Shown in pieces: positions 3,829-24,909 of a DNA stretch of 32,000 nucleotides (position 1 is the first letter of the stretch; the number at the start of each line of letters is the position of its first letter). The stretch is from Rhodobacter capsulatus SB 1003 (GTDB lineage: Bacteria > Pseudomonadota > Alphaproteobacteria > Rhodobacterales > Rhodobacteraceae), in NCBI RefSeq assembly GCF_000021865.1, contig NC_014034.1:1410001-1442000 (forward strand). The letters are read 5' to 3'. Made by a program: the position numbers and the translations under genes. The notes beneath the pieces were generated by a model. That model did not search any database. It was given only the letters and a program-made list of their open reading frames with translations, and had not been told where the DNA came from.

Positions 3829-4072
3829 GATTACGCCTCGTCTACTGGGGACCATTTCCTCCATTGTAATCACGCGAACGAAAGCAACCAAACAAGATGA
3901 GACGGAAATTCACACGAAACGGCGAAATAAGTCGAATTTGCCGCCAATCTCGGAAAAACAATTTCGCAAAACTGTTGATTTCGGCATCTTCAAGCGGCGC
4001 AATGCTGCGCGTTGAATATAATTTCGGAAAAGATGCCATATTTTATTTCCAGACAGCCAGATATCACGCATT

Positions 4073-4096
4073 GAAAATCCGGATTTTCAGATTTTC
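4073..4096. promoter_or_regulatory. Perfect 16-bp palindrome GAAAATCCGGATTTTC plus an adjacent extra half-site GATTTTC; candidate operator
   Basis: Read directly at 4073..4088 (palindrome) and 4090..4096 (half-site). It sits in the AT-rich divergent intergenic region between the fibre-like gene (start 3828, minus strand) and the MgtC-like gene (start 4259, plus strand). Confidence 0.35.
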
Positions 4097-4258
4097 ACCA
4101 TACCGACAAAGTCAGTTGCGTTTTGTCGCGTCAACCACTGGACAGGCCGTGACGGCGATCTGCGAGCCGCGCGAATATATCCGCTGTCCATGGCGTTCCA
4201 GATCAAGGCGCGGGGCGGCAGACTGTGCTGTCATGGGCCAATTGCTCCGGAGGCCCGC

Positions 4259-5509
4259 ATGGAAACCCTGCCGATCCTCGTTCCGCCCGTCCTGAACCTG
4301 GTGAGCGCGATCGCCGTCGGTGCTCTCATTGGCACCGAGCGCGAGCGGCGCAAGGGCGAGGGACCGGCGCGCTCGCCTGCGGGGTTGCGCACCTTTGCCA
4401 TCGCCTCGACCGCCGGGGCGGTGGGTTTCAGTCTGGGCGGGGCGGTGCTTCTGGCCGTCGTCGCGGCCTCGGTCGCGGGGCTGCTGGCCGTGTCTTACGG
4501 CAAGCGTCCGCATCAGGATCCGGGGCTGACCACGGAAATCGTGCTGCTGCTGACGGTGCTGCTCGGTGGGCTCTGCATCCCCGCGCCGCAGATGGCGGCG
4601 GCGATCGCCGTCACGGTGACGGTGCTGCTGCATCTCAAGGCGTGGCTGCACACCTTGGTCACGACGCTGATTTCAAAGGATGAACTCGACGATGCGCTGA
4701 TCTTTGCCGCGGCGACGCTGGTGATCTTGCCCCTGGTGCCGGATCGGCCGATGGGGTCCTGGCTGGCGCTGAACCCGCATTCCTTGGGCATCGTGATCGT
4801 GCTGGTGATGGCGATCGGCGCGGCGGGCTATCTGGCGGTGCGGCTCTTCGGGGCGCGGTTCGGGTTGCCGCTGTCGGGGGCGCTCTCGGGGTTCGTCTCC
4901 AGCACCGCGACGATCGGCGCGATGGGGGCACGGGCGCTGCAATCGCCCGAGATGCGGGCCGCCTGCGTCGCGGGGGCGGTGCTCTCGACCGTGGCGACGG
5001 TGCTGCAGATGGCGCTGGTGCTGGCGGCGGTCAGCCTGCCGACGCTGCGCCAGATGATCCTGCCTTTGGTCTTCGCCGGGGTCACCGCCGTGGTTTACGG
5101 GGTGGTGCTGACGCTGGCGGCGATGCGCCATCCCGCGCCCGAGGCGCCCGGCCCCGGCAGCGCCTTCAGCCTGAAGACGGCGCTGATCTTCGGCACGGTG
5201 CTGGCGCTGGTGCTGGTCCTCGCGGCGGGGTTGCAGGCACATTTCGGCGGATCGGGCGTGCTTCTGGCGGCGACGGCGGCGGGGCTGGTCGACACCCATG
5301 CCTCGGCGATCTCGGTGGCGACGCTGGTCGCGGCGGGCAAGGTTGCTCCCGAGGCGGCGGCGGTGCCGATCCTGGCCGGGCTGAGCGCGAACACGGCGAC
5401 GAAGATCCTCGTGGCGGCGATCAGCGGCGGGCGCGGCTTTGCCCTGCGCGTCGTGCCGGGGCTGGTTCTGGTCATCCTGGCGGCCTGGGCGGGCAGTCTG
5501 TTCTGGTGA
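4259..5509 (+). CDS. Polytopic membrane protein, MgtC/SapB-like N-terminus with DUF4010-like remainder
   Basis: The track ORF is 4190..5509. I prefer ATG 4259 (GGAGG 5 nt upstream, METLPILV...). LVSAIAVGALIGTERERRK...AGLRTFAI matches the MgtC/SapB signature. The rest is a long, highly hydrophobic multi-helix region. Confidence 0.75.
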   Translation: METLPILVPPVLNLVSAIAVGALIGTERERRKGEGPARSPAGLRTFAIASTAGAVGFSLGGAVLLAVVAASVAGLLAVSYGKRPHQDPGLTTEIVLLLTVLLGGLCIPAPQMAAAIAVTVTVLLHLKAWLHTLVTTLISKDELDDALIFAAATLVILPLVPDRPMGSWLALNPHSLGIVIVLVMAIGAAGYLAVRLFGARFGLPLSGALSGFVSSTATIGAMGARALQSPEMRAACVAGAVLSTVATVLQMALVLAAVSLPTLRQMILPLVFAGVTAVVYGVVLTLAAMRHPAPEAPGPGSAFSLKTALIFGTVLALVLVLAAGLQAHFGGSGVLLAATAAGLVDTHASAISVATLVAAGKVAPEAAAVPILAGLSANTATKILVAAISGGRGFALRVVPGLVLVILAAWAGSLFW

Positions 5510-8176: not shown

Positions 8177-8196
8177 GTAAACGTTGCATAGGCCCT
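8177..8196. repeat. IS66-family terminal inverted repeat (GTAAACGTTGCATAGGCCCT)
   Basis: It starts with GTAA, as in many IS66-family ends. It matches the reverse complement of 24283..24302 (GTAAGCGGTGCATATACCCC) at 15 of 20 positions. Both ends also carry a subterminal TTTTGC. It lies about 500 nt downstream of the transposase stop. Confidence 0.6.
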
Positions 8197-8680
8197 AAAA
8201 TCCCCGATTTTGCCCCCCTGAGCCGAAAAAACCTTGGGCATAGCCACGTCTAAGGCCGAATCGGCCGGTGATCGGAGACGACAGTTGAGGGGGCTCTGAC
8301 CGGCTGCGCTTCGGGTTAGAAGGTGTGAGGTCGGCAGGCAGCCCCGTCGGCGATATGTCACCTACCTGTCTGATGGGGCTGATCGCTTCGATGCAGCTGG
8401 GGCCGGACGCGATGTCGGCCGCAGGATCGCCGTCGCAACTGGGCGTAGCCGCCGCACCCAGCGCATACGGGGCCGAGAGGCTGGCACGCCGGTGGTCGAC
8501 TATTTCGGGGACCACGAGAAAGCCGATGAAAACGGGGCGCAGGAGCGCCCAGACGTTTTGCCATGCGCAAGATCAGCGCGCACGACTCTTGGCCGGAACC
8601 CCGCTCCCGGGGCCCGGCTGACAAGAGGATATCCCTAGATCGGGGGGATCGCCGCCGAGCAGGCGGCGATCCGGGCGAGG

Positions 8681-10462
8681 TCAGGCGACCATGTTTTCCG
8701 ACGGGTCTTCCGCGTCGCCGAGGGCGGCCTTACAATGCCAAGGCATCAACTGGCTGTAATCGGTCAATTCGCGGCTCAGTTCGATCTGGTCGACGACCCA
8801 GTTCAGATAGCGGAAGGGGTTCACACCGTTCAGACGGGCGGTTTCGATCAAGGTATTGAAGAGCGCCCATTTCTTCGCCGCTTCGTGGTTCCCGGCGAAG
8901 AGCGAGTTCTTCTTCGTAAGGGCAACGGGACGCATGCCGCGCTCGACCGGGTTGTTGTCGATCGCAATCCGACCGTCAAGAACATAACGGATCATGTCGT
9001 CCCACGCAGCCAGGAAGTAATTTGCGGCCGTCTTGAGGTTGCCCTTGGCCAAGGTGGGTTCGATCCGCAGCATGTCCGCACGGATCTTTTCGAGGACCGG
9101 CAACGCTTCCGCGACGCGCACCGCTTGGCGCTCCTCGGGCGACCGCCCGAAGACCCTCTCCTCCACCGCATAGACCGTCTTGAGCGCTTTGATCACGCGT
9201 TTCGCACAGGTGCTTGGCGCGGCCTTTTCCGCATCAGTGAACTTGCGGCGCACATGCGCCATGCAGCGCGCCAGCGTGAAGCCGGCGTTCTTGCCTGGCG
9301 CACGCCGGATGACGTTGTAGCCCTTGTAGCCGTCAACCTGGACGACCTGGCTCAGCGCCCCTTCGAGCATGCGTTCGGCGACATGGCCTCCTCTGGAGGG
9401 GTCATATTCGAAATAGATCGCCGGATGGGGGTCGCCGCCCCAGCCGCGCTCATCGCGGTGGATCGCCCAGAGAGTCCCCTTAATGCATTTTCCCCTCCCC
9501 TTCTCAGTCGGGATCACCCGCAGCGGCGTCTCATCCATATGCACGACAGGGCCTGCGGTCACATGTTTCCAGACTTCCTCCCAGAGCGGCTCCAGCTTCT
9601 CGGCGATATGGGTCGCGTTGCGGCCCAGCGTCGAGCGCGCAACGTTGCACCCATTGTCATGGTAGCGGCGCTCCGCTCGGAAGTCGGTGGAGTGCTCATA
9701 GAAATGCTGGCAGACGGCGTTGATCACGAACTTCGCGTCCAATGTGCGGCCCGCCATGATGTAGCCCGTGGCATGGGCGTTGTAGGGGGCGTGCTCCTTG
9801 CACGCCGCGCTGCAGTTGCAGCCGCGGCTGTAGTGAACGTGCTTTTCGAGCACGAAATGCTCCCGGACCACCCTGAGCCGAGAGCTGGTCCAAGAGCCGA
9901 GTGTCTTGAGTTTAGCCCCGCAGGAGCAGTGCGTTTCCTCGGGGAAATGCTTGTACACCTCGGTCTTGATGTTCTTTGGTCGCTTCTGTTTCTGCTTCCC
10001 TTTCCGGGGCTTCTGCTCCTCCTCCTCCTCCTCCTCGACATCGTCGTCGGGCACGTCATCCTCGTCGTCGTCCGCTCCCAGGAAATTGTTGTCGGAGCTG
10101 CCGCAGAAAGTCTGATGGCGCAGCAGATTCAACTGCTCCTTTTGGTAACGCAGGTCCTTTTTCAGCTTGACGATCCGGCGTTCGGCGGCGTTTTCGCGGT
10201 CCACCACCGCCTCGAACTCGACATGCGCATCGATCAGGCACTCCTGGATACCGCGTTTGACCTCCTCGCAACTGTGCGGCAACGCGTCGAGCAGATCCGA
10301 GATTTCCATGATGATCTCGGCCATGATGCTGAGCGTGCCGACGGAGATCTCTTCGGCTTCACTGTGGGCGGGTGTTTCTGCGACAGGCCCGGGATCGGTG
10401 TCACCGGACGGCGGAAACGGGCCGTTTGGAGGCGGGGCTTCAGCAGGATTGTTGTCATTCAT
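8681..10462 (-). CDS. tnpC: IS66-family DDE transposase (TnpC type)
   Basis: Track ORF 8681..10588; I prefer ATG 10462 (MNDNNPAE...). It has a leucine-zipper-like region ending LNLLRHQTFCGSSD and Cys-rich segments (HCSCGAKL...GCNCSAAC). The DDE core reads VVHMDETPLRV...VQVDGYKGYN...ARCMAHVRRKF, and the C-terminus reads IDNNPVERGMRPVALTKKNSLFAG...ETARLNGVNPFRYL. An unusual acidic/basic insert (DDDEDDVPDDDVEEEEEEEQKPRKGKQKQKRPK) is present. Confidence 0.9.
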   Translation of the reverse strand: MNDNNPAEAPPPNGPFPPSGDTDPGPVAETPAHSEAEEISVGTLSIMAEIIMEISDLLDALPHSCEEVKRGIQECLIDAHVEFEAVVDRENAAERRIVKLKKDLRYQKEQLNLLRHQTFCGSSDNNFLGADDDEDDVPDDDVEEEEEEEQKPRKGKQKQKRPKNIKTEVYKHFPEETHCSCGAKLKTLGSWTSSRLRVVREHFVLEKHVHYSRGCNCSAACKEHAPYNAHATGYIMAGRTLDAKFVINAVCQHFYEHSTDFRAERRYHDNGCNVARSTLGRNATHIAEKLEPLWEEVWKHVTAGPVVHMDETPLRVIPTEKGRGKCIKGTLWAIHRDERGWGGDPHPAIYFEYDPSRGGHVAERMLEGALSQVVQVDGYKGYNVIRRAPGKNAGFTLARCMAHVRRKFTDAEKAAPSTCAKRVIKALKTVYAVEERVFGRSPEERQAVRVAEALPVLEKIRADMLRIEPTLAKGNLKTAANYFLAAWDDMIRYVLDGRIAIDNNPVERGMRPVALTKKNSLFAGNHEAAKKWALFNTLIETARLNGVNPFRYLNWVVDQIELSRELTDYSQLMPWHCKAALGDAEDPSENMVA

Positions 10463-11842
10463 TTCCGGTGTCCATATTCTTCGGCGAAGTGCCTCCGGGT
10501 CGGGCGGTCTCTTGCTCGGGTGACCACTCAGGCGGTCCGTGGGAGGCGGAACCGATCGACAAGCATGACGAGGACAGCCCTCGGACACGCGAAAGCGCCG
10601 ATGCGATGTGGTTCTTGCTGTCTTGGTGTCCGACTTGATAACGCCGGTGCCGCGTCATTTCCTTGTGGTGATCCGCGTGAAATGCTTGGACCGACCGCCA
10701 GCGCTGATGGTTTCGGTCTAGGGAGTTTCTCGCGGCGCGCTGCAAGAGATGCTGCGCAACAGTTGTGAGCGTGTTGGAGGTCTTGGATTAACCCATATCG
10801 CCCTGAGGAGAGAGGCCGCCCGGCGCTTATCGCTATTGGCGTCCTGAAGAATTTCGTGAAATGGCCAGCATTAAGCCAATTTCATCGAAGTTGTTCCTGC
10901 ACAGAAACGCCGTCATTTCTGTGAGGATTTCCCCGAAACCTTACCTTTATGTTGCCATGCAGATCTGACATTGGAATTCATGGCGCGGCTCACTCGGTTA
11001 TTTGTCGCAGATCAGGAGAAATTATGAGGTGTTCAGCTGCATATAAACCAAACTTCCTTCTTGCACTTTCCGCCTTCCGGCCCGCGACTTGATATTTATC
11101 GCCCGAAGTGATTGCATTTGCCGCCAGCATCTCGCGAAAATAAACCTCACCCAGAGGTCCCGTATTTTGCTTGGCGTTTGCTGGTTGCAGCTATGTTCCT
11201 GCATTGCTGGATGCGTCAAGTCATGCTCTTGCCTCACTTTATTTACTTCAGCGGCGATCGCCGTTTCGTTCATTGCCGCACGCACAATGCGATCAGCCTC
11301 GCCAGCCTTTATGGATGGAGCAAATCGTTGGTGTACAGAAGTTTTTTTAAATATCGATCATTAACCATGATTTATTCGCAATTCGGCCTTTTGATAGAAT
11401 TCGTGGATTACAGCCTTGCGTTTCTGGCGACGCGAAGCTGCAAGAGGAGGAAAAATTCCATTTTTCGCTTTCCAAGATTTTTTTGTGTGATTCTTCGTGT
11501 CGCGATAAGGGGACCTCGCTCGCGATCGCTTCGCGAATGTCAATATATCTTTTAGTTGCGAAAGGGCGCCGCCAAAGCTGATTTTCGCCCGAATCGGTCC
11601 GCCTTCAACTCGGTCAGTGCGCCGACCCTGGAGCAACGCCAGATCGGTCGGTGATGCGCATTCGCACCCTCCCTGCGCCGCTGTTTTTCCGATCGGCCTG
11701 AGGATATGCGCTGTGCCAAGGGGATCGTTTTTCGCAATTGCGAAGGCCTGCCCGCGGGGGTTGCCAGTTTACCTCAAAGGTTGATACCGTCCCGACAGCA
11801 GCCGCCGTGGTTGCGCCATTGGATCAGGTGCAGCGGGACCGG

Positions 11843-14296
11843 ATGGACAAGAACGGCCTCTCGGAACGCGATATTTGTTCGATTTTCATTACCCCGGCAT
11901 TGCAAAAGGCGGGCTGGGATCCTGTGACCCAGATCCGGGAAGAGGTCGGCTTCACCCGCGGGCGGATCAATGTGCGCGGCAAACTCGTCAGCCGTGGCCA
12001 GGGCAAGCGCGCCGATTACATCCTGTCGATCCGGCCAAATATTCGCCTTGCGGTGATCGAGGCGAAGGACAACGCCCACGCCACCGGCGCTGGCATGCAG
12101 CAGGCCCTCGATTATGCCGAGACCCTGAACCTGCCGTTCGCTTTTTCCTCGAACGGGGACGGCTTCCTTTTTCATGACCGGACGGGGATGAGCCCCACGC
12201 CTGAGGTTCTCCTCTCACTCGACGACTTCCCTTCGCCCACCGAACTCTGGGCACGCTATTGCGCCTGGAAGGGGCTCGACGCCGCCGCAAGCTCCGTTGC
12301 GCTGCAGGACTACCACGACGACGGCAGCGGCAAGGAGCCGCGCTATTACCAGATCAACGCGGTGAACGCCGCAATGGAGGCGATCGGACGGGGTGAGAAC
12401 CGGGTGCTTCTTGTCATGGCGACGGGCACCGGCAAGACCTACACCGCGTTCCAGATCATCTGGCGTTACCGGCAGGCTTTTCCGGGCAAGCGGATCCTGT
12501 TCTTGGCCGACCGCAACGTGCTGATCGATCAGACCATGGTCAATGATTTTCGGCCCTTCTCTGGCAAGATGGCGAAACTCTCGACCCAGTCAAAGACGAT
12601 CGAACGCGCCGATGGCTCCTCGGTCGAGCTGCCCCTCGGCCTCGACCGCAAGCGTCGGATCGATCCGTCCTACGAAATCTACCTTGGTCTTTATCAGGCG
12701 ATCACCGGCCCGGCGGAAGAGGACAAGATCTTCCGCGAGTTTTCGCAAGACTTCTTCGACCTGATCATCATCGACGAATGCCACCGCGGCAGCGCTGCCG
12801 AGGACTCTGCCTGGCGCGAGATCCTCGATCATTTCTCGGGCGCGGTGCAGATCGGCATGACCGCGACGCCGAAGGAAACCGAATACGCGTCGAACATCGC
12901 CTATTTCGGCGCGCCGGCCTACAGCTATACCCTGCGGCAGGGCATCCGGGATGGTTTCCTCGCGCCCTACAAGGTGATCAAGGTCCATATCGACCGCGAC
13001 ATTCAGGGCTACCGCCCGGAAGCCGGCCAGACCGATCGCGATGGCGCGCTGGTCGAGGACCGGATCTACAACACCAAGGATTTCGACCGCACCCTCGTGC
13101 TGGATGACCGCACGAAACTGGTCGCGCGCAAGGTCACCGAATTTCTCAAGGAAAGCGGTGACCGGATGGCCAAGACGATCGTCTTTTGCGTCGATCAGGA
13201 GCATGCCGCCCGGATGCGGCAGGCGTTGGTGAATGAAAACGCCGATCTGGTGGCGCAAAATCCCCGCTATGTCATGCGCATCACCGGAAGCGACACGGAG
13301 GGCCTAGAGCAGCTGGGGAATTTTATCGACCCCGAGGTCTCGCATCCGGTGATCGTCACCACCTCGCGGCTTTTGTCGACCGGCGTCGATGCCCAGACCT
13401 GTCGTCTGATCGTGCTCGACCGCGAGGTAGGCTCGATGACCGAATTCAAGCAGATCGTCGGGCGCGGCACCCGGGTGCATGAAGACACGGGCAAGCTTTA
13501 CTTCACGCTGATGGATTTTCGCGGCGCGACGAACCATTTTGCCGATCCCGATTTCGACGGCGAGCCGGTGCAGATCTACACGCCCACCGGCACGGACCCG
13601 ATCGTGCCGCCCGACGACGTTCCGCCGCCAGAGGGGGACGAGCCGCCCCTTTCCGCCACGCCGGGGCCGGACGAGACGGTGCTGATCGACCCGGTCGCAA
13701 CGCTGGGGCAAACCGGGTCAGGCGCGCCGCAACGCAAGATCTATGTCGATGGCGTCGCCGCGACCATTGTCGCGGAACGCGTCGAATACCTTGACGAACA
13801 CGGCAGGCTGATCACCGAATCCTTGCGCGACTACACCCGCAAGGCGCTGAAACGGCGCTTTGCCAGCCTTGATGATTTCCTCAAACGCTGGAAGACGCCC
13901 GAAAAGAAACAGGCCGTGCTCGACGAGCTTGCGGCCGAGGGGTTGCCGCTCGATCTCGTGGCGGCGGAGCTTGGTCGCGATCTCGACCCGTTCGACCTGA
14001 TCTGCCATATCGCCTTCGACGCCAAGCCCCTGACCCGCCGCGAACGCGCCGAGGGCGTCAAGAAACGCGATGTCTGGGCGCGCTACGGCGCCACCGCGCG
14101 CGCCGTGCTGACTGCGCTCCTCGACAAATACGCCGACGACGGGCTTCTCGATTTTGACGACCCCAAGATCCTGAAAATAAATCCCTTCTCGCAAATGGGA
14201 ACCGAGGTTGAACTGATCCGGGCTTTCGGCAAGAAGCAGGACTACCTGAAGGCCATGCACGATCTGCAGGCTGCCCTTTACGATGAAAGCGCCTGA
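11843..14296 (+). CDS. hsdR: Type I restriction enzyme R subunit (EcoEI/EcoAI-like C-terminus, i.e. type IB-like)
   Basis: Track ORF 11738..14296, with an in-frame ATG at 11843 (MDKNGLSERDICSIFITPAL). It has the PD-(D/E)xK-like motif RADYIL...LAVIEAKD, helicase motif I LLVMATGTGKTYTA, and the DEAH-type box LIIIDECHRGS. The C-terminal segment DDFLKRWK...DPFDLICHIAFDAKPLTRRERA resembles the EcoEI R C-terminal domain. Confidence 0.9.
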   Translation: MDKNGLSERDICSIFITPALQKAGWDPVTQIREEVGFTRGRINVRGKLVSRGQGKRADYILSIRPNIRLAVIEAKDNAHATGAGMQQALDYAETLNLPFAFSSNGDGFLFHDRTGMSPTPEVLLSLDDFPSPTELWARYCAWKGLDAAASSVALQDYHDDGSGKEPRYYQINAVNAAMEAIGRGENRVLLVMATGTGKTYTAFQIIWRYRQAFPGKRILFLADRNVLIDQTMVNDFRPFSGKMAKLSTQSKTIERADGSSVELPLGLDRKRRIDPSYEIYLGLYQAITGPAEEDKIFREFSQDFFDLIIIDECHRGSAAEDSAWREILDHFSGAVQIGMTATPKETEYASNIAYFGAPAYSYTLRQGIRDGFLAPYKVIKVHIDRDIQGYRPEAGQTDRDGALVEDRIYNTKDFDRTLVLDDRTKLVARKVTEFLKESGDRMAKTIVFCVDQEHAARMRQALVNENADLVAQNPRYVMRITGSDTEGLEQLGNFIDPEVSHPVIVTTSRLLSTGVDAQTCRLIVLDREVGSMTEFKQIVGRGTRVHEDTGKLYFTLMDFRGATNHFADPDFDGEPVQIYTPTGTDPIVPPDDVPPPEGDEPPLSATPGPDETVLIDPVATLGQTGSGAPQRKIYVDGVAATIVAERVEYLDEHGRLITESLRDYTRKALKRRFASLDDFLKRWKTPEKKQAVLDELAAEGLPLDLVAAELGRDLDPFDLICHIAFDAKPLTRRERAEGVKKRDVWARYGATARAVLTALLDKYADDGLLDFDDPKILKINPFSQMGTEVELIRAFGKKQDYLKAMHDLQAALYDESA

Positions 14297-14301
14297 GGCC
14301 A

Positions 14302-15747
14302 ATGTCCGTCCGCACCCTCGTCAAATCGCTGCAACAGATCATGTGGAAGGACACCGGCGTCGACGGCGATGCGCAACGGCTCAGCCAGATGTGCTGGATG
14401 TTCTTCCTCAAGATCGTCGACGATCAGGACGAGGCCCTCGAACTCACCCGCGACGATTACACCTCGCCGATCCCAGCCGATCTGCAGTGGCGCGCCTGGG
14501 CGGCCGACCCCGAGGGGATGACTGGCGATCAACTTCTGAGCTTCGTCAACGAAGAGCTCTTCCCCGGCCTCAAAGGCCTGCGCCCCGCCACCCCCCGCGC
14601 CCGCACCATCCGCGACGTCTTCGAAGACGCCTACAACTTCATGAAATCCGGGCAGCTGCTGCGGCAGGTGATCAACAAGATCAACGAGATCGATTTCAAC
14701 AACCTCTCCGAACGCCAGCATTTCGGCGACATTTACGAACAGCTCCTCAACGACCTGCAAAACGCCGGCAACGCGGGCGAATATTACACCCCCCGCGCCG
14801 TCACCGCCTTCATGGTCGAGCGCATCGACCCCCGCCCCGGCGAGATCGTGATGGACCCCGCCTGCGGCACCGGCGGCTTTCTCACCTGCGCCATGCGCCA
14901 CATGCGCGCCCGCCATATCCGCCTACCCGAACACGAAGACGCCATGCAGCGCTCCTTGCGCGCGGTCGAAAAGAAACCGCTGCCGCACATGCTTTGCGTC
15001 ACCAACATGCTGCTCAATGGCATCGAAGAGCCGCATTTCGTCCGCCACGACAACACCCTCGCTCGCCCGCTCACCAGCTGGACCCGCGACGAGCGCGTCG
15101 ACATCGTGCTGACCAACCCGCCCTTTGGCGGCAAGGAAGAAGACGGCATCGAGAACAACTTCCCCACCTTCCGCACTCGCGAAACCGCCGATCTGTTCCT
15201 TGCCCTGATCATCCGCCTGCTCAAGCCCGGTGGCCGCGCCGCCGTGGTTCTGCCCGACGGCTCGCTCTTCGGCGAGGGCATCAAGACCCGGCTGAAAGAG
15301 CACCTGATGGCCGAATGCAACCTGCACACCATCGTGCGGCTGCCCAATTCGGTCTTCAAACCCTATGCCTCGATCGGCACCAACCTGCTGTTCTTCGAAA
15401 AGGGCACCCCCACCACCGAGACATGGTTCTGGGAACATCGCGTCCCCGAGGGGCAAAAGGCCTATTCGATGACGAAGCCGATCCGGCTTGACCATCTGGC
15501 GGGCTGTGCGGACTGGTGGGGCGGCGCCACCCGCGAGGGGCGCGTCGAAGGCCCGCAGGCCTGGAAGGTCTCGGCCGAGGAGATCAAGGCCCGCGGCTAC
15601 AACCTCGACATCAAGAACCCCCATGCCGAGGCCGAGGATCTGGGCGACCCCGAGCATCTTCTGGCCGCGCTCGACGAGGCCGAGGCCGAGGTCACCCGCC
15701 TGCGCGCGGCCTTGAAAGAGATCCTGACCGAGGCGCTGGCGCGATGA
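14302..15747 (+). CDS. hsdM: Type I R-M N6-adenine DNA methyltransferase M subunit
   Basis: It starts 5 nt after the hsdR stop. AdoMet motif I is MDPACGTGGFL and catalytic motif IV is LTNPPFGG. The HsdM-type N-terminus reads WMFFLKIVDDQDE. Confidence 0.92.
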   Translation: MSVRTLVKSLQQIMWKDTGVDGDAQRLSQMCWMFFLKIVDDQDEALELTRDDYTSPIPADLQWRAWAADPEGMTGDQLLSFVNEELFPGLKGLRPATPRARTIRDVFEDAYNFMKSGQLLRQVINKINEIDFNNLSERQHFGDIYEQLLNDLQNAGNAGEYYTPRAVTAFMVERIDPRPGEIVMDPACGTGGFLTCAMRHMRARHIRLPEHEDAMQRSLRAVEKKPLPHMLCVTNMLLNGIEEPHFVRHDNTLARPLTSWTRDERVDIVLTNPPFGGKEEDGIENNFPTFRTRETADLFLALIIRLLKPGGRAAVVLPDGSLFGEGIKTRLKEHLMAECNLHTIVRLPNSVFKPYASIGTNLLFFEKGTPTTETWFWEHRVPEGQKAYSMTKPIRLDHLAGCADWWGGATREGRVEGPQAWKVSAEEIKARGYNLDIKNPHAEAEDLGDPEHLLAALDEAEAEVTRLRAALKEILTEALAR

Positions 15748-17426
15748 ACGCCGATCAGCTTTTGCGCCTTTACGACCGGGTCTGCGAGGCCGAGGACGCC
15801 GTCCCCCGCCTGCGCCGGTTTGTCCTCGATCTGGCCGTGCGCGGCAAACTGGTGCCGCAGGACCCGGACGATGAACCGGCCTCCGAACTGCTGAAACGGA
15901 TCGAGAAGGAAAAGGCCCGGCTGGTGAATACGGGGGAGATCCGGAAGCCTAAGTCGCAGACCCCGTTGAACGGCGATGTTTGCCCGTTTCTCGTTCCTCG
16001 GGGATGGGCTCTTACGCGCCTCGGTTCGGTGATCGATCTGCTATCGGGGCAACACCTGCAACCGAATGAATATTCATCCAATCCGGCGGCAGGCATCCCT
16101 TATATCACTGGCCCTTCCGATTTTGCCGAAGTTGGCCTTTCCATTTCGCGTTACGCCCTTGTGCGAAAGGCAGTCGCGCGTGGTGGGCAACTCCTTCTCA
16201 CCGTGAAAGGATCAGGTGTTGGCAAGACCACGATCTGTGATCTTCCCGAGGTCGCAATCAGCCGCCAACTGATGTCACTTGCACCGATCCTGTGGTCGAT
16301 CAGATTTCTGGAAATCATAACGCACCGTCTGGCAGACACGCTTCAAGAGCAAGCCCGCAGCCTGATCCCCGGAATATCCCGGGAGGACGTTGCAGACTTC
16401 GCGTTCCCCCTCCCACCCCTCGCAGAGCAACACCGCATCGTTGCCAAGGTCGAGGAACTGATGGCGCTGCTCGACCGGATCGAGGCGGCGCGGGCGGGGC
16501 GAGAGGAGGGGCGCAACCGCCTGACCGCCGCCACCCTTGCCCGCCTGACCGACCCCAAGGCCGACGCCCCCGCCGCCGCCCGCTTCGCGCTGGACACCCT
16601 CGCCCCCCTCACCACCCGCCCGGACCAGATCAAGACCCTGCGCCAAACCATCCTCAACCTCGCCGTCCGAGGCAAACTGGTCCCGCAAGACCCGGCAGAC
16701 GAACCGGCGTCGGAGTTGCTGAAACGGTTCAAGGCGGCCAAGATCGCACATAAATGGGAGACCGGAGATGCGCGGAATAAACTTGCGCCCGACGCTGAAG
16801 TATCGAGCTACCCGCTGGAATTGCCCAAGGGCTGGGCGGTGCAGTCCTTCGAGAACCTGTTTCTTTTCATCGACTATCGTGGCAACACGCCCCCAAAGAC
16901 CGATAGCGGTGTGCCACTGATCACGGCCAAGAACGTTCGCATGGGGTCACTCAACCGCGAGCCAAGGGAGTTCATTTCAGAAAAGACCTTCAAGTCTTGG
17001 ATGACCAGAGGCTTTCCCAAGCTGGGCGATCTTTTTTTCACCACCGAAGCCCCTCTTGCCAACGTTTGTCTGAATGACATTCAGGAGCCGTTTGCGCTCG
17101 CGCAGCGAGTGATCTGTCTTCAGCCTTATGCTGAAATCAGCACCCACTACTTGATGCTGGCGCTTTGTGGCGACGTGATGCAGTCGTTGATTGATGGGCA
17201 AGCAACAGGGATGACGGCAAAGGGTATCAAGGCATCCAAGCTTAAACCGCTTCCCATCTCCCTCCCCCCCCTCGCCGAACAACACCGCATCGTGGCCAAG
17301 GTGGACGCCCTGATGCGCCTCCTCGACGCTCTCGAGGCGGCGCTGAGCGCCTCGGCCACCACCCGCGCCCGCCTCCTCGACGCCACCCTGCGCGCCGCGC
17401 TGACCGACACCGGAGAAGCCGCATGA
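15744..17426 (+). CDS. hsdS: Type I R-M specificity subunit (two target-recognition domains)
   Basis: ATG 15744 overlaps the hsdM stop (ATGA); the track ORF begins earlier, at 15516. The conserved regions are duplicated: LAVRGKLVPQDP(D/A)DEPASELLKR occurs twice and PPLAEQHRIVAKV(E/D) occurs twice. Each flanks a variable region, as expected for HsdS. Confidence 0.9.
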   Translation: MNADQLLRLYDRVCEAEDAVPRLRRFVLDLAVRGKLVPQDPDDEPASELLKRIEKEKARLVNTGEIRKPKSQTPLNGDVCPFLVPRGWALTRLGSVIDLLSGQHLQPNEYSSNPAAGIPYITGPSDFAEVGLSISRYALVRKAVARGGQLLLTVKGSGVGKTTICDLPEVAISRQLMSLAPILWSIRFLEIITHRLADTLQEQARSLIPGISREDVADFAFPLPPLAEQHRIVAKVEELMALLDRIEAARAGREEGRNRLTAATLARLTDPKADAPAAARFALDTLAPLTTRPDQIKTLRQTILNLAVRGKLVPQDPADEPASELLKRFKAAKIAHKWETGDARNKLAPDAEVSSYPLELPKGWAVQSFENLFLFIDYRGNTPPKTDSGVPLITAKNVRMGSLNREPREFISEKTFKSWMTRGFPKLGDLFFTTEAPLANVCLNDIQEPFALAQRVICLQPYAEISTHYLMLALCGDVMQSLIDGQATGMTAKGIKASKLKPLPISLPPLAEQHRIVAKVDALMRLLDALEAALSASATTRARLLDATLRAALTDTGEAA

Positions 17427-18817: not shown

Positions 18818-20554
18818 TTGCTGGGGCTCCAAGTGAAAATCAAATATCGGATAAATAACTTTAAGGCTTTTTCGGACAGTGGGGAGATGTCATTCTCTCC
18901 CGTGACTGTGCTCTGTGGGGCTAACAGCACAGGAAAGAGCTCTATAATAAAGTCTATTCTTCTTGCAAAGCAAAGCACAGCCGAGCGAAGAAGCTCACTC
19001 AAGATTGATGCTCCGTCTCAACCACTGATACTAAATGGTGAGTTGACCAAGCTCGGCGCATGGAGCGATACGATTACCGGTAAAGATCGCGCGAAATCAA
19101 TGGGCTTCTGTTGGTCTGTAAAGCTATCTCAAGAAGAGTTCGATGATGCATTAAAGCGAGCTGGTTTGCTGAGGCGAGGTGAAGCCAGTTCAGAGTTAGA
19201 TTTGGCGAACCAAAGAGATTTAACTCTCTCAGTTTCTTTAAGCTCAGACACCGAAGTCCGAGAGGAACTCTCAGCGCGAGTTGATCGGTGGGATGTTAAT
19301 CTTGACGATCTGAACGTACGAGTGTTTAGGCAGGAGGTCGCAAACGGCTCTCGACCTTTGTATCGTGTCGAAATTAATAGTATAAGAAAATTAATAAGGA
19401 GGAAAGGGTCCAAATTTGGATCATATCGCGTTATACTCGGCGACCTGCACAAGGCACTTTCTGGCGCTGATACCCCGATAAGCCTTGGGAATGTGTACGC
19501 CGTCAACTCTGGCCCCTTTATTGGTAGAATTGAGCCTCGATTCGATGAGACTTGGACTAATTTTTTTGAAGCAATTTACAAATTGTCCGTATCGCACAGA
19601 GGACGAAAACGCGGACCGGCACCTGGATGGCTAGAAGATCTCGGGGCAGCGGTACGAACCTACAGGAAAGGTCTTTCTGAAGGAAAGATGCCAACCGCGC
19701 GCAATACCGCCATGCGAGTTCTTACCTATCTCGCGATTGAATTCGTTAGTGAGATATCGCTTGTTTTCTCCGAGACAAAAGCAGTCCTCGCTCCTATGTG
19801 GCAAGACATCCGCTATCTAGGCCCATTAAGAGATCAGCCCAGGCGATACTACCAATTTGATGATACTGGTGGAGCTGATGTAGGTGTCAGTGGAGAATTT
19901 ACTGTGCAGGTCCTCGCGCTAGAGCAAGGAAGGGTCCTTCAATCAACTCGACTAGCCAGTCTGCCTTCGAATAGAATTAAATTCACCGATCGAAAATTAA
20001 CCACCCTTTTGGACCATACAAATTTTTGGTTGAGTTGGATGGGGCTTCCCGCAGTTTCGCCTCTCAATTTGCAGCAATCCCTATATGGCCTTGCCGTGGG
20101 GGATCTTCGGGTTGGTCTTCTGGATGTGGGATTTGGCGTGAGCCAAGTTTTGCCAATTATAGTTGAGACACTCAGGGCCGAGAAAGGCGATCTCGTAATT
20201 CTTGAGCAACCAGAGATCCACTTGCACCCGAGAGTGCAGGCACTTCTTGGAGATTTTCTTCTTGCTAGGTCTCAGGATGGTGTTCGCTTTCTTGTCGAGA
20301 GTCACAGTGAATACCTAATAAAGAGACTTTGCCGCAGAGTATCTGAATCGGAATCTGAAAATTTGCGACCAAGTATTGAGATTCTTTTTATAGAAGGATC
20401 ACCCGAAGGCGCAAGCTGCAGGCCCGTAGAACTGAATGACTATGGTGAAATACTAAATTGGCCTAAGGGCTTCTTCGATTTGGATGAGGATCTTCATTGG
20501 ACACATGCTGCCCTCGAGAGAAGACGAGCAAGCAACGCCAAGAAGCAGAAGTAG
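18818..20554 (+). CDS. ABC/SMC-like AAA ATPase (AAA_15/AAA_21-type) with DUF3696-like C-terminus
   Basis: The track start at 18818 is TTG. The in-frame GTG at 18833 (VKIKYRINNFKAFSD) is an equally plausible start. Motifs: Walker A VLCGANSTGKSS, YLGPLRDQPRRYY, DVGFGVSQVLPII, Walker B-like DLVILEQPEIHLHP, H-loop-like ESHSEYL, and C-terminal NWPKGFFD. Confidence 0.85.
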   Translation: MLGLQVKIKYRINNFKAFSDSGEMSFSPVTVLCGANSTGKSSIIKSILLAKQSTAERRSSLKIDAPSQPLILNGELTKLGAWSDTITGKDRAKSMGFCWSVKLSQEEFDDALKRAGLLRRGEASSELDLANQRDLTLSVSLSSDTEVREELSARVDRWDVNLDDLNVRVFRQEVANGSRPLYRVEINSIRKLIRRKGSKFGSYRVILGDLHKALSGADTPISLGNVYAVNSGPFIGRIEPRFDETWTNFFEAIYKLSVSHRGRKRGPAPGWLEDLGAAVRTYRKGLSEGKMPTARNTAMRVLTYLAIEFVSEISLVFSETKAVLAPMWQDIRYLGPLRDQPRRYYQFDDTGGADVGVSGEFTVQVLALEQGRVLQSTRLASLPSNRIKFTDRKLTTLLDHTNFWLSWMGLPAVSPLNLQQSLYGLAVGDLRVGLLDVGFGVSQVLPIIVETLRAEKGDLVILEQPEIHLHPRVQALLGDFLLARSQDGVRFLVESHSEYLIKRLCRRVSESESENLRPSIEILFIEGSPEGASCRPVELNDYGEILNWPKGFFDLDEDLHWTHAALERRRASNAKKQK

Positions 20555-20562
20555 ATAAATAG

Positions 20563-21498
20563 ATGAGTGTCTTTCTAGATCCCAACATCTACTGCTACTC
20601 CATTGATGAGTGGCAGCAGGGCGCTGCTCTTGATCGTATGCATCATTTGACAACTTTCCTTGAAAGTCTTGGTATTGAAGAGGAGCGATTAGAAGCCAGA
20701 AATCAGGTAGAATTGTGGCTTAGCGAAATCTTGATTTTCGCGACGTATGAAATGAATCCAAATATTAACACTCCACCAAATGGGTTTTACTTTCGGCAGT
20801 ATGTATCCGGGCTACTCCCTGCCTTGATGCGCAGGAAAATTACTTTCGAAGCGCCCGCGGTCGACGCCTGCAGGGCATCTGAGCGGATAAATATAGATAA
20901 TTGCGTCATTGAAGAGGCATTAATATGCGCCCTAGATGAAATTTCAACCGATGACGCCAAAAAAATTACTTATATTTTCGCCTCATCACGTGTTAGCTTA
21001 GCTCTCGGAGGAGGGGTATTCTCTGCAGAATTTGAGATTAATGAGGTGAATGGAAGGCACTTTCTGGATGAGTGTGATCTATTTCCTTTGTCGAGCAAAG
21101 TATCCCCAGATATTGCGATCGTCGCAGCTGCTGAAGTTCTGAAAGATAAACTTTCGATTGAGGATGCAACTTGGAGAGAACATTCAGTTTGCAAGGCTAT
21201 TCTTCACGAAAATTTTCTTCCGTCCATCACGCGTGCTGATTTTGGCGCTGATGAGCGTATATATCATTCCCGGGTTGTTTATTCACTGCTGCAGATTTTG
21301 TCTGGTCGAAACTGCACCATAAATGAGCATTCAATGAATCCTGAGAAAATTTGGTTTGACAAGAAATGGCATGGAAAGTGGAATTCATATGTGTTCAGAA
21401 ACGGTCCGAGTGATATTGATTCGAGGTGTTCACGGATTTACTATGCTAAAGTAGATGGCGGAGTTCTTCTCTATGAATACAATGGCGATGCACACTAG
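20563..21498 (+). CDS. 311-aa protein with no family I recognise, partner of the ATPase; the C-terminal ~60 aa show a RelE/YoeB-like pattern (tentative)
   Basis: The ATG lies 8 nt after the ATPase stop, on the same strand and with the same AT-rich composition. I see no HNH, TOPRIM, DUF4435 or DUF262 motifs. The C-terminus KWHGKWNSYVFRN...SRIYYAKVDGGVLLYEYNGDAH resembles the GxWSRRI...HRLVYAV.DD.LLI..CRYHY layout of YoeB/RelE toxins. Confidence 0.7.
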   Translation: MSVFLDPNIYCYSIDEWQQGAALDRMHHLTTFLESLGIEEERLEARNQVELWLSEILIFATYEMNPNINTPPNGFYFRQYVSGLLPALMRRKITFEAPAVDACRASERINIDNCVIEEALICALDEISTDDAKKITYIFASSRVSLALGGGVFSAEFEINEVNGRHFLDECDLFPLSSKVSPDIAIVAAAEVLKDKLSIEDATWREHSVCKAILHENFLPSITRADFGADERIYHSRVVYSLLQILSGRNCTINEHSMNPEKIWFDKKWHGKWNSYVFRNGPSDIDSRCSRIYYAKVDGGVLLYEYNGDAH

Positions 21499-22261: not shown

Positions 22262-22990
22262 TCAGTGCCACTGCGGCCCCGCCTCAAGCGTCTCTGCACG
22301 CGAAATCATCCGCATCACCGTGCGGAGCGAGATCGGCTGGGCAGGAGTTGCGCTCGCTTGGATCGCTTCCACGATCACCTCGATGCTGTCATCGCTCAAA
22401 GCACGCCGCGCGCCTTGGCGGCGGGCAAATCCGGTCAGGTCCCGCGTTGTCAGCTGCGGCAGCCGGATGGGCGGGCAGCGGCTCAGCAGCGGCTCCGGAA
22501 GGGGGCGCGTCGCGTTGACGGTCATGACCCATGACACCTGTCCCAAGTCAAATGGCACTTGAAAATACGGGCAAGTCCAACGGCTTGCGGTTGCGGACTC
22601 CAACAGTGGCAACAGTCCGCCGCACAGATCATAGGACCCGCCATTCGTCCCTGTCACACGACCGGCCTTTTCGAGTTCATCGATCACGACGATCGGGTTG
22701 CCAACCCTCTCCTGAAGGATCAGCTGTAGCAGCCGCCCGGGTCCTGCGGTGGCCCAGCCGCGCTGGCAGCCCAGAACGCCGAAACTGGCGTTCTCAACCG
22801 TCGCTTCGACTGACATCGATGGCATGCGCAGCGCGGTAGCCAGATGACGTGCCCAAGTCGATTTCGCGATCCCCGGGGGCCCATCGAGCAGCAGCGGCGG
22901 CAGGCGAACGCCCGGCCAACCCTCGCGCACCGATTTCCGCAACGCGTGCCATCCATGGGAATTCGTCATGTAGGTCAGCGGCGATCTCAT
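22262..22990 (-). CDS. AAA+ ATPase with a Lon-type AAA module and no protease domain; probably the C-terminal part of a frameshifted gene
   Basis: Walker A is LLLDGPPGIAKST and Walker B is PIVVIDELEKAG. Later segments (LLPLLE...WTCPYF...DLGQVSWVMTVNATRPLPEPLLSRC) follow the Lon AAA+ layout. It overlaps the upstream ORF by 197 nt in a different frame. Confidence 0.7.
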   Translation of the reverse strand: MRSPLTYMTNSHGWHALRKSVREGWPGVRLPPLLLDGPPGIAKSTWARHLATALRMPSMSVEATVENASFGVLGCQRGWATAGPGRLLQLILQERVGNPIVVIDELEKAGRVTGTNGGSYDLCGGLLPLLESATASRWTCPYFQVPFDLGQVSWVMTVNATRPLPEPLLSRCPPIRLPQLTTRDLTGFARRQGARRALSDDSIEVIVEAIQASATPAQPISLRTVMRMISRAETLEAGPQWH

Positions 22991-23363
22991 CCGCGCGGTG
23001 CTCCGAGGGAAGCCGGATCAGATTGACACCGTCACGCAGAATGGAAAGACGCTCTTTGTCCTCACGCTTGAGATGGGCCAGCCCCGACGCCGCCTCGCGG
23101 CGCTCGATCAACCGCTTGGCCCGCCGCGCGATCTTGCGGCAATCCGCCTCCGCCAATGTGATGATCGGGGCCATTTGCCGGGGATTGTCCGCGGCGGCCT
23201 TGGGGCCCGTGGGGCGGGGCGGATCCTCGTCCCGGATTGCGTCCAACTCGACGTGGATCATCGCCCGCCGAAGGGTCTTGAGGTGCTCGGACAGGCGCAG
23301 TTCGATCGATTTCTGGGTCTCGTCCGACGGATATTTGACCAGCAATATCTGGTGACGCGGCAT
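22794..23363 (-). CDS. Hypothetical protein, probably the N-terminal part of the AAA+ ATPase gene
   Basis: ATG 23363 has AGGA about 7 nt upstream. Plausible protein text runs to about ...LIRLPSEHRADEIAADLHDEFPWM (near 22,950). After that this frame turns Ala/Arg/Gly-rich, while the other frame reads WHALRKSVREGWPGVRLPPLLLDGPPG. Confidence 0.5.
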   Translation of the reverse strand: MPRHQILLVKYPSDETQKSIELRLSEHLKTLRRAMIHVELDAIRDEDPPRPTGPKAAADNPRQMAPIITLAEADCRKIARRAKRLIERREAASGLAHLKREDKERLSILRDGVNLIRLPSEHRADEIAADLHDEFPWMARVAEIGARGLAGRSPAAAAARWAPGDREIDLGTSSGYRAAHAIDVSRSDG

Positions 23364-23439: not shown

Positions 23440-23790
23440 TCAGGCGATGACCGGTTTGCGCGGGGCGTTGACCGCGATGCCGCGCCAATCGATCCCGGCA
23501 AAGAGGGCGTCGAACTGCACCTGGTTCAGCATCATCGGCCCGGACTGGGCCTTGGGCCAGACGAAGCGCTTGCCATCGAGCCGCTTCATCGTCAGCACCA
23601 GCCCGGTGCCATCCCAGACGATCATCTTCAGCTTGTCGGCGCGACGGGACCGGAACACCCAGATCGCGCCGTCGAACGGGTCGAGCTGGAACTGGCTCGC
23701 GACATGCGCCACCAGCCCGTCCATTCCCTTGCGAAAATCGATCGGCTCGGTGGCGAGGTAGATGCGGTAGCTTGGGGTGTGGTAGCTCAT
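23440..23790 (-). CDS. tnpB: IS66-family accessory protein TnpB (IS66 Orf2-like)
   Basis: 116 aa: RIYLATEPIDFRKGMDGLVAHVASQFQLDPFDGAIWVFRSRRADKLKMIVWDGTGLVLTMKRLDGKRFVWP. This is the characteristic IS66 Orf2 sequence. Its ATG overlaps the tnpA stop (ATGA). Confidence 0.92.
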   Translation of the reverse strand: MSYHTPSYRIYLATEPIDFRKGMDGLVAHVASQFQLDPFDGAIWVFRSRRADKLKMIVWDGTGLVLTMKRLDGKRFVWPKAQSGPMMLNQVQFDALFAGIDWRGIAVNAPRKPVIA

Positions 23791-24221
23791 TGCGAGGCCC
23801 TCACCGCACGCAGGATCTCGGCCAGCTGCTCGGCCGGAAAGTCACCACGCAGCGATATCTCGGCGTCGCCGATCCGGATCTGACAGGCGGCCGCGTCAGC
23901 GGCGCCTTTCTGCTTCGCTTGGCGCGCCGGTTCCGAAGGGACCATCACCTCGACGAACTGCGGAGACTTGCCCTGCGAAGCAGCCTTTCCCTGCGGCCTC
24001 CCCCGGCGCGGCAGCTCGGGCAATTCGGCGCGCGCCCATTTCGCGACTAGGGACTCATTGGCGCCGATCTCCTTGGCGACGGTGACGATCTTGGTGCCGG
24101 CCTCGATCTTCTTCACCGCCATCGCCTTGATCTCATCGGGCCAGACTCGACGCCCGTTGTCGGCGGTGATCACCGGGATTCCCCAGACCACCACATCGCC
24201 GCCCTCCTTCTCGTCCAACAT
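23787..24221 (-). CDS. tnpA: IS66-family accessory protein TnpA (HTH)
   Basis: 144 aa, with GGAGG upstream of ATG 24221. It contains RRVWPDEIKAMAVKKIEAGTKIVTVAKEIGANESLVAKWAR (HTH) and the C-terminus IRIGDAEISLRGDFPAEQLAEILRAVRA, typical of IS66 orf1. It starts 81 nt inside the IS end at 24302. Confidence 0.88.
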   Translation of the reverse strand: MLDEKEGGDVVVWGIPVITADNGRRVWPDEIKAMAVKKIEAGTKIVTVAKEIGANESLVAKWARAELPELPRRGRPQGKAASQGKSPQFVEVMVPSEPARQAKQKGAADAAACQIRIGDAEISLRGDFPAEQLAEILRAVRASQ

Positions 24222-24282
24222 CTCGACCTCCTTCGAACAGAGAGAGGGCGATCATCGCAAAACCCTTATTTCATTGGAACAT

Positions 24283-24302
24283 GGGGTATATGCACCGCTT
24301 AC
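24283..24302. repeat. IS66 terminal inverted repeat (reverse complement reads GTAAGCGGTGCATATACCCC)
   Basis: It has the canonical GTAAGCG start of IS66-family ends. It matches the IR at 8177..8196 at 15 of 20 positions, in inverted orientation. It abuts the 3' 13 nt of a CRISPR repeat. Confidence 0.7.
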
Positions 24303-24909
24303 CGTGGATCGAAACAGGCTGCTTTGGGCGGAACACCTGATCCTGCTGGGTCGCTCCCCCCGCGGGGGCGTGGATCGAAACGTCTCCGCTCTGCTTCACG
24401 GCTGCGTCAACCTTGTCGCTCCCCCCGCGGGGGCGTGGATCGAAACACGGATTGCATGGCGCCGAGGGACAGGCTTTGCAGTCGCTCCCCCCGCGGGGGC
24501 GTGGATCGAAACCGCCCGCGGCGTTTGACCTGGTCGCGGGCAGCTGGTCGCTCCCCCCGCGGGGGCGTGGATCGAAACGACGCGCTGAAGGAGGGTGATC
24601 TCGGTGGCGCCTTGTCGCTCCCCCCGCGGGGGCGTGGATCGAAACACGGATTGCATGGCGCCGAGGGACAGGCTTTGCAGTCGCTCCCCCCGCGGGGGCG
24701 TGGATCGAAACCGCCCGCGGCGTTTGACCTGGTCGCGGGCAGCTGGTCGCTCCCCCCGCGGGGGCGTGGATCGAAACGACGCGCTGAAGGAGGGTGATCT
24801 CGGTGGCGCCTTGTCGCTCCCCCCGCGGGGGCGTGGATCGAAACATGGAAAACCGCGGCTTCACCGCGCGGGATTGGGTCGCTCCCCCCGCGGGGGCGTG
24901 GATCGAAAC
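24303..24909 (+). CRISPR. Type I-C-like CRISPR array: 13-nt repeat remnant plus 9 full 32-nt repeats, 9 spacers (6 unique sequences); no cas genes in the window
   Basis: The repeat is GTCGCTCCCCCCGCGGGGGCGTGGATCGAAAC. Full copies start at 24350, 24415, 24481, 24547, 24614, 24680, 24746, 24813 and 24878. Spacers are 33-35 nt. The remnant CGTGGATCGAAAC lies at 24303..24315, followed by a 34-nt spacer. The GTCGC...GGAT(T/C)GAAAC form is typical of subtype I-C repeats, which sets the orientation as +. Confidence 0.95.

Follow-up and report, generated by a model that had tools for sequence, protein, structure and literature searches.

The window analyzed here, a stretch of 32,000 nucleotides from the chromosome (C1) of Rhodobacter capsulatus SB1003, presents a type I-C CRISPR array that starts in the middle of a repeat, directly beside the end of an IS66-family element. 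This raises the question of what became of the remainder of that repeat, and of the leader and cas genes expected to its left. The original prediction held that an IS had inserted within a repeat, and that the leader, the leader-proximal spacers and probably the cas operon had been removed or displaced by it or by a later IS-mediated rearrangement.

The two halves of a split CRISPR array

On the plus strand positions 24290-24302 of the window read atgcaccgcttac and constitute an IS66 end (…CACCGCTTAC) that stops at 24302. The adjoining 13 nt, cgtggatcgaaac (24303-24315, plus strand), are the last 13 nt of the 32-nt type I-C repeat and represent the distal remnant of repeat 41. Next come a 34-nt spacer (24316-24349) and the first full repeat, GTCGCTCCCCCCGCGGGGGCGTGGATCGAAAC (24350-24381), which opens a series of nine perfect 32-nt repeats at a spacing of 65-67 nt (24350-24909). 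The succession of IS66 terminus, last 13 nt of the repeat, spacer and full repeat had been noted before, and was reproduced in every element when we re-read the sequence. The match of the remnant is not due to chance because, in a whole-genome search, all copies of the 13-mer CGTGGATCGAAAC (50 of 50) sit inside the CRISPR array of SB1003; it is also in phase with the array, since a full repeat would begin at 24284, 66 nt ahead of the next one.

A genome-wide repeat search recovered another 40 repeats, perfect or nearly so, as a block on the same strand (C1:1395365-1398002). The 41st copy in this proximal block is a half-repeat, GTCGCTCCCCCCGCGGGGGCGTGGATC, comprising the first 27 nt (C1:1398037-1398063), after which the sequence continues with GTAAG…; this sequence, GTAAGCGGTGCATCGGCCC…, pairs as an inverted repeat with the end at 24302. 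Thus, the complementary half-repeat that was predicted to abut the other IS66 end elsewhere in the genome does exist. The same octamer, CGTGGATC, stands at both junctions (C1:1398056-1398063 on the left and window 24303-24310 on the right), in agreement with the 8-bp target duplication anticipated for an element of the IS66 type, and together with the half-repeat it establishes that the insertion occurred within a repeat. Landing inside a repeat makes both junctions readable to the base. When C1:1398064-1434302 (36,239 bp) is excised in silico along with one copy of the octamer, the two parts join without irregularity into a single array with 50 repeats, whose 49 spacers measure 33-38 nt. The window portion of the array, its distal part, accordingly comprises spacers 41-49 and repeats 42-50 (24316-24909, plus strand), as given by the repeat mapping and the excision. 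The pattern is that left by a single, simple transposition that cuts with an 8-bp stagger, and not that of a deletion or an inversion. Within the distal part we also observed an exact 199-bp tandem duplication (24411-24808) that corresponds to three repeat-spacer units, such that spacers 43-45 recur as 46-48; recombination between repeats is its presumed cause.

Repeat 1 is directly preceded by a 176-bp leader and a complete cas3-cas5c-cas8c-cas7-cas4-cas1-cas2 operon, so that the search for type I-C cas genes suggested earlier, carried out across the genome, succeeded in full. NCBIfam models are matched by Cas5c (TIGR01876), Cas8c (TIGR01863, 1e-193), Cas7 (TIGR02589) and Cas1c (TIGR03640, 1e-155), with further matches in the operon to TIGR00372 and TIGR01573; its ORFs include Cas4 and Cas2, and Cas3 combines HD and helicase domains. 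This full gene set adjoining an array of 32-nt repeats identifies the locus as type I-C. Operon and leader lie 36-47 kb upstream of the window array on the same strand, as expected if the array is read from GTCGC to GAAAC with the leader and cas genes to its left. The earlier statement that these are lacking is therefore true within the 32-kb window but false for the genome, where both are present upstream. Likewise, the leader, the 40 leader-proximal spacers and the full cas operon have indeed been displaced, by 36.2 kb, but none has been removed or rearranged and all are intact. With the leader and an intact cas operon upstream on the same strand, the window array is not an orphan, an array whose genome contains neither cognate cas genes nor a leader. 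It forms the trailer end of a type I-C locus that appears intact, and where annotations of SB1003 give two arrays, these should be combined into one. A 1,030-aa SNF2 helicase resembling ZorD (NF041790, 5e-90, below the curated cut-off; C1:1380963-1384055) is encoded a few kb farther upstream, ahead of the cas operon, and therefore the insertion landed in an existing defence neighbourhood.

In a comparison of the locus with related strains, a 34-mer spanning the restored junction was not found in the species-representative genomes and metagenomes searched, which yielded no uninterrupted array, and I-C repeats of the SB1003 type are absent from the other two genomes named R. capsulatus, DSM 1710 and SP108. 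The motif GAAAC beside an IRL in strain SP108 was considered as a repeat end and rejected as a coincidence, as no array follows it.

Termini and transposition genes of the inserted element

The inserted IS66-family element (36,239 bp, C1:1398064-1434302, minus strand) has its right-hand 24.3 kb inside the window (1-24302), whereas the left 11.9 kb, with IRR, a frameshifted tnpC, a truncated SRAP gene and the Menshen genes NsnABC, lie outside it. IRL, GTAAGCGGTGCAT..., occupies 24281-24302 on the minus strand. Its boundary is the same to the base in four copies whose flanks are unrelated: homology begins precisely at the terminal G in two copies from R. viridis and one from R. capsulatus DSM 1710 as well as here, and the GTAAGCG... 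sequence is hence a genuine end of a mobile element, as had been proposed. The first 13 nt of IRL and IRR are identical, 20 of the first 27 match, and both terminal inverted repeats start with GTAAGCG, as is typical of the IS66 family.

Reading inward from IRL, the right arm encodes on the minus strand a 144-aa TnpA (23787-24221; PF01527, HTH_Tnp_1; NCBIfam NF047595, IS66-like TnpA), the 116-aa IS66 accessory protein TnpB (23440-23790; PF05717, 3e-36; NF033819) and, as its last gene, a Lon-like AAA+ ATPase (22262-23363). The transposase gene proper, tnpC1, is at the left end beside IRR and specifies a DDE_Tnp_IS66 domain with the IS66 C-terminal domain (PF03050+PF13817/NF033517). While the IS66 complement of tnpA, tnpB and a DDE transposase tnpC is therefore present, the compact (~2.5-3 kb), contiguous tnpA-tnpB-tnpC organization of a canonical IS is not, the gap between tnpB and tnpC being ~33 kb. 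Compared to DSM 1710, in which both genes are intact, tnpC1 of SB1003 carries a 4-bp deletion that causes a frameshift (it is otherwise 98.2% identical), and its AAA+ gene is split into ORFs of 189 and 242 aa by a 23-bp deletion near 22951, a net frameshift. As tnpC and the AAA gene are both frameshifted, the SB1003 copy is a fossil. No other gene of the tnpC1 type turned up in a search of the SB1003 genome, and the element is probably immobile unless the second transposase in its cargo, tnpC2, can act on its ends.

Several alternative assignments were tried and rejected in the course of this annotation. The 189-aa ORF after tnpB is not a fragment of tnpC, to which it has no similarity, and instead makes up the N-terminal half of the AAA gene, which is broken. 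The AAA+ protein is not a helper of the IstB/TnsC/MuB kind, its nearest solved relatives being Lon AAA+ modules. No inverted repeat beyond chance-level matches was detected on the inner side of tnpC1 or of the AAA gene; the left arm could thus not be sustained as a self-contained, tnpC-only IS. Separately, the 133-kb plasmid bears a solo IRR-side remnant (G000:C2:51213-51350) that starts with GCAAGCGG..., in which 41 nt identical to the chromosomal IRR are followed by 94 nt at 85% identity.

Cargo of the SB1003 element

Between the right arm (IRL-tnpA-tnpB-AAA) and the left arm (tnpC-IRR) lies ~30 kb of cargo. It includes a complete Menshen system (NsnA, 3e-139; NsnB, 2e-112; NsnC, 2e-92), the type I restriction-modification genes hsdR, hsdM and hsdS (11738-17426, plus strand) and a low-GC two-gene cassette (18818-21498, plus strand) that codes for an ABC ATPase resembling NsnB/HEC-03 and a 311-aa partner, besides the truncated SRAP gene and a gene for a DUF4236 protein. 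The left part of the window (1-5509, both strands) holds the cargo that is shared with the DSM 1710 element, namely a giant BppL_N-repeat protein on the minus strand (1-3891, continuing past the left edge to L002:11131) and an MgtC/DUF4010 membrane protein on the plus strand (4190-5509). The BppL_N (phage lower-baseplate N-terminal) ORF is of ~1,590 aa with at least 7 repeats, and of 993 aa in DSM 1710.

A second IS66-family piece is nested in the cargo (8177-10588, minus strand). It consists of an inverted repeat, IRR2 (GTAAACGTTGCAT...), at 8177 and an intact tnpC2, a 635-aa ORF 65% identical to tnpC1; tnpA, tnpB and an IRL of its own are absent from it. Pairing IRL with IRR2 would give an element of 16 kb, but the duplication speaks for the outer pair of ends, 36 kb apart. 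The GC content of the element is likewise patchy, ranging from 45 to 68%. This mosaic of a second IRR, tnpC2 and shifting GC content suggests that part of the cargo was probably acquired later than the founding event or independently of it, and the IRR2/tnpC2 piece itself probably came separately. As a speculation on the route, a related element might have inserted in nested fashion, followed by recombination between the two right arms.

Related elements at other sites

The closest relative is a 27,509-bp element in R. capsulatus DSM 1710, at a site unrelated to that in SB1003 and with an 8-bp duplication of its own, GCACGACC. It has in common with the SB1003 element a left arm of 4.1 kb (96% identity), a right arm of 2.4 kb (90%) and ~6 kb of cargo, in which the genes for the BppL_N protein and MgtC keep their order (90-93%). 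With tnpA and tnpB open, and tnpC (614 aa) and the AAA gene (366 aa) both uninterrupted, this copy appears from its sequence to be intact. Its cargo also includes OLD/AriA-like, SIR2 (PDC-S25), Mza-like and ZorD/DpdE-like genes and a C5-methyltransferase. A search for the empty site found no match for its flanks in SB1003, and no ORF is restored over the junction.

In R. viridis JA737 three IRR/IRL pairs have matching 8-bp flanks, GATGCAGC, CTTGAAGC and AAAATATC, and one element, entered at C22:18942, extends for at least 20.7 kb to the end of its contig with no IRR met on the way. A Pseudorhodobacter MAG contains a 28,897-bp element (G061:C24:297534-326430) that is bounded by the same 13-nt termini, is flanked by the duplication GGAATATT and has tnpC (607 aa) close to one of them. 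Rather than defence genes, it carries ABC transporters, a luciferase-like monooxygenase and flavin oxidoreductases, and near the end where tnpA/tnpB would be expected there is an IS3-type gene. Altogether, 8-bp duplications are found at CGTGGATC in SB1003 and at five further end pairs, each with its own octamer. The right arm is equally well delimited: in four copies it stops at the identical point, about 30 nt past the stop codon of the AAA gene, with unrelated DNA beyond. MAGs of Pseudorhodobacter and Roseovarius show the arrangement IRL-tnpA-tnpB-AAA again, with AAA proteins that are only ~41% identical.

Homologues of tnpB and of the Lon-like AAA+ gene (about 50-80% identity) are also paired on Rhodobacterales plasmids, as in Paracoccus yeei (NZ_CP044080.1) and Ketogulonicigenium vulgare (NC_017385.1), where they adjoin metallophosphoesterase and DUF6634 genes with no tnpC nearby. 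We rejected these loci as close relatives of the element, as only the tnpB and AAA modules match and tnpC is missing from their vicinity; the pair may instead be a separate conserved module.

Origin of the split organization

If the cargo had not travelled with the ends, it would be hard to see how different sites, each bearing a separate duplication, came to have internal cargo in common, and this points to a giant transporter IS66. We therefore consider it very probable that the I-C array was cut in two by a single transposition of such an element, which moved as one unit. The 36,239-bp element would have entered repeat 41 via a staggered 8-bp cut, leaving GTCGCTCCCCCCGCGGGGGCGTGGATC at the tnpC-side end (IRR) and CGTGGATCGAAAC at the tnpA-side end (IRL). 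It would have been organized as IRL, tnpA, tnpB, the Lon-like AAA+ gene, ~30 kb of mostly anti-phage cargo, tnpC and IRR, and the duplications together with the shared cargo suggest that all of this was mobilized as a whole. Like the passengers of transporter IS66 (tIS66), this cargo lies inside IS66 inverted repeats, and the genes common to DSM 1710 argue for its mobilization with them.

Another scenario would have a compact, ordinary IS66 (tnpA-tnpB-tnpC, about 3 kb) enter the repeat, with the ~33 kb between tnpB and tnpC accumulating in place through insertion and recombination at a later stage. The nested IS66 piece, the patchy base composition and the largely different cargo of SB1003 and DSM 1710 are all consistent with such growth, but it would not account for the same split layout and ~6 kb of same-order cargo in DSM 1710, at another site and with a separate duplication. 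Moreover, the right-arm end point just past the AAA gene is common to four copies, tnpC adjoins tnpB in none of them, and the IRL-tnpA-tnpB-AAA order has been kept in other genera at an identity as low as ~41%. Hence, we regard accumulation in place as unlikely.

Outer ends that share one duplication are also what a composite transposon would leave, in which two full IS66 copies in direct orientation flanked and moved the cargo and each later lost its inner half. This scheme needs two matching deletions, identical in SB1003, DSM 1710 and R. viridis, and it anticipates two complete IS copies around the cargo, whereas each arm has a partial gene set and inner inverted repeats are absent beside tnpC1 and the AAA gene. 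Furthermore, a left-arm query (IRR and tnpC) was unmatched in the loci with the right arms of three relatives, and no tnpA/tnpB homologue is present in the left arm of SB1003, all of which makes a composite origin highly improbable. Finally, a true orphan array, whose leader, proximal spacers and cas operon were removed by the IS or by a later IS-mediated deletion or rearrangement, would fit the 32-kb window with neither leader nor cas genes, but is refuted by the leader, 40 spacers and full cas operon 36 kb upstream on the same strand, the intact duplication and the exact reconstruction of the array.

Consequences for the CRISPR array

If the array was indeed split by transposition of a giant transporter IS66, the two sides of the insertion would have fared differently. 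The proximal hybrid repeat keeps its hairpin and 28 of 32 bases, and therefore spacer 40 should still be processed; with the cas operon, leader and spacers 1-40 untouched, the proximal part as a whole should still work. The distal remnant keeps the 5' handle bases but has lost the repeat hairpin. Spacers 41-49 are 36 kb away from the leader, behind a minus-strand right arm that runs the opposite way, and a crude promoter scan found no outward sigma-70-like promoter facing them. Judging from this layout, they are probably silent or nearly so and not made into crRNA, though read-through from plus-strand cargo operons into the distal array may occur.

The SB1003 genome (chromosome of 3,738,958 bp and plasmid of 132,962 bp) includes the RcapMu prophage at 100% identity. 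Spacers 45 and 48 (24584-24618 and 24783-24817), which are among those duplicated, match the RcapMu tape-measure gene at 33 of 35 nt (target C1:1063774-1063808), with TTT rather than TTC as the motif flanking the target; the transposon insertion separates this RcapMu-matching spacer from the leader. AcrIC9 has been reported, as have R. capsulatus genomes that carry I-C systems and are self-targeting (PMC7391736).

A second, independent insertion into a CRISPR array was observed in R. viridis JA737 (G015:C8:162001-167502), where a type I-C array of at least 74 repeats ends in a spacer that is interrupted after 24 nt by an IRR of the same family; the assembly is fragmented, and the partner of this IRR did not turn up in it. 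The orientation relative to the array is as in SB1003, and in both cases array transcription would consequently run antisense into tnpC. Arrays account for two of about nine independent insertions seen in Rhodobacter, the SB1003 repeat and the R. viridis spacer. It is conceivable, if doubtful, that this IS66 subfamily comprises autonomous giant transposons that ferry whole defence islands and may also favour type I-C arrays as landing sites.

Relationship to known mobile elements

The CRISPR side of this result is ordinary, in that the window array is the trailer end of an intact I-C locus. IS insertions in CRISPR arrays and cas loci are commonly observed, and part distal spacers from the leader; the present case differs from the usual ones in that the insert is a 36-kb, defence-carrying transposon, and in that it sits inside a repeat. 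What merits attention is that IS66-family machinery can bound and, we infer, move units of 27-36 kb, with cargo that is mostly anti-phage in two R. capsulatus strains. In the open-access papers and bioRxiv preprints searched, we came across no account of defence transposons of 20-40 kb that are bounded by IS66 ends.

With canonical IS66 elements such as those of Paracoccus, ISPpa5a (2,829 bp) and ISPpa7 (2,731 bp), both with 8-bp repeats (PMC3281130), the element agrees in gene set, terminal sequence and duplication length, and differs in its more than 10-fold larger size, its non-contiguous transposition genes and the presence of cargo. Transporter IS have been recognised for the IS66 and IS1595 families (10.1101/2021.05.26.445724), and one tIS66, ISPa75-fosZ, is 2,996 bp long with its passenger downstream of tnpC (PMC12888890). 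The likeness to ISPa75 extends to inverted repeats starting GTAAGCG, the 8-bp duplication, the genes tnpA, tnpB and a DDE tnpC, and passengers inside the inverted repeats. The insert is a much larger form of the known transporter IS66, the IS66 passenger carriers described so far being a few kb long: a known tIS66 measures about 3-4 kb and has one passenger or two behind tnpC, compared with 27-36 kb here. Unlike them, the present elements carry the cargo between tnpB and tnpC, which puts the transposition genes at either end, and have a conserved Lon-like AAA+ gene next after tnpB; their cargo consists of defence systems or, in the Pseudorhodobacter MAG, of metabolic genes.

If confirmed, these elements would be one more family of transposons by which defence islands are carried. 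The Tn7-like transposons with defence cargo (Benler et al., 10.1101/2021.08.23.457393) resemble them in being large units with variable, anti-phage-rich cargo and a conserved AAA+ ATPase gene, and are distinguished from them by their machinery, since the elements described here have a DDE_Tnp_IS66 transposase rather than TnsB, no TniQ or att-site targeting, and an AAA+ protein that is Lon-like.
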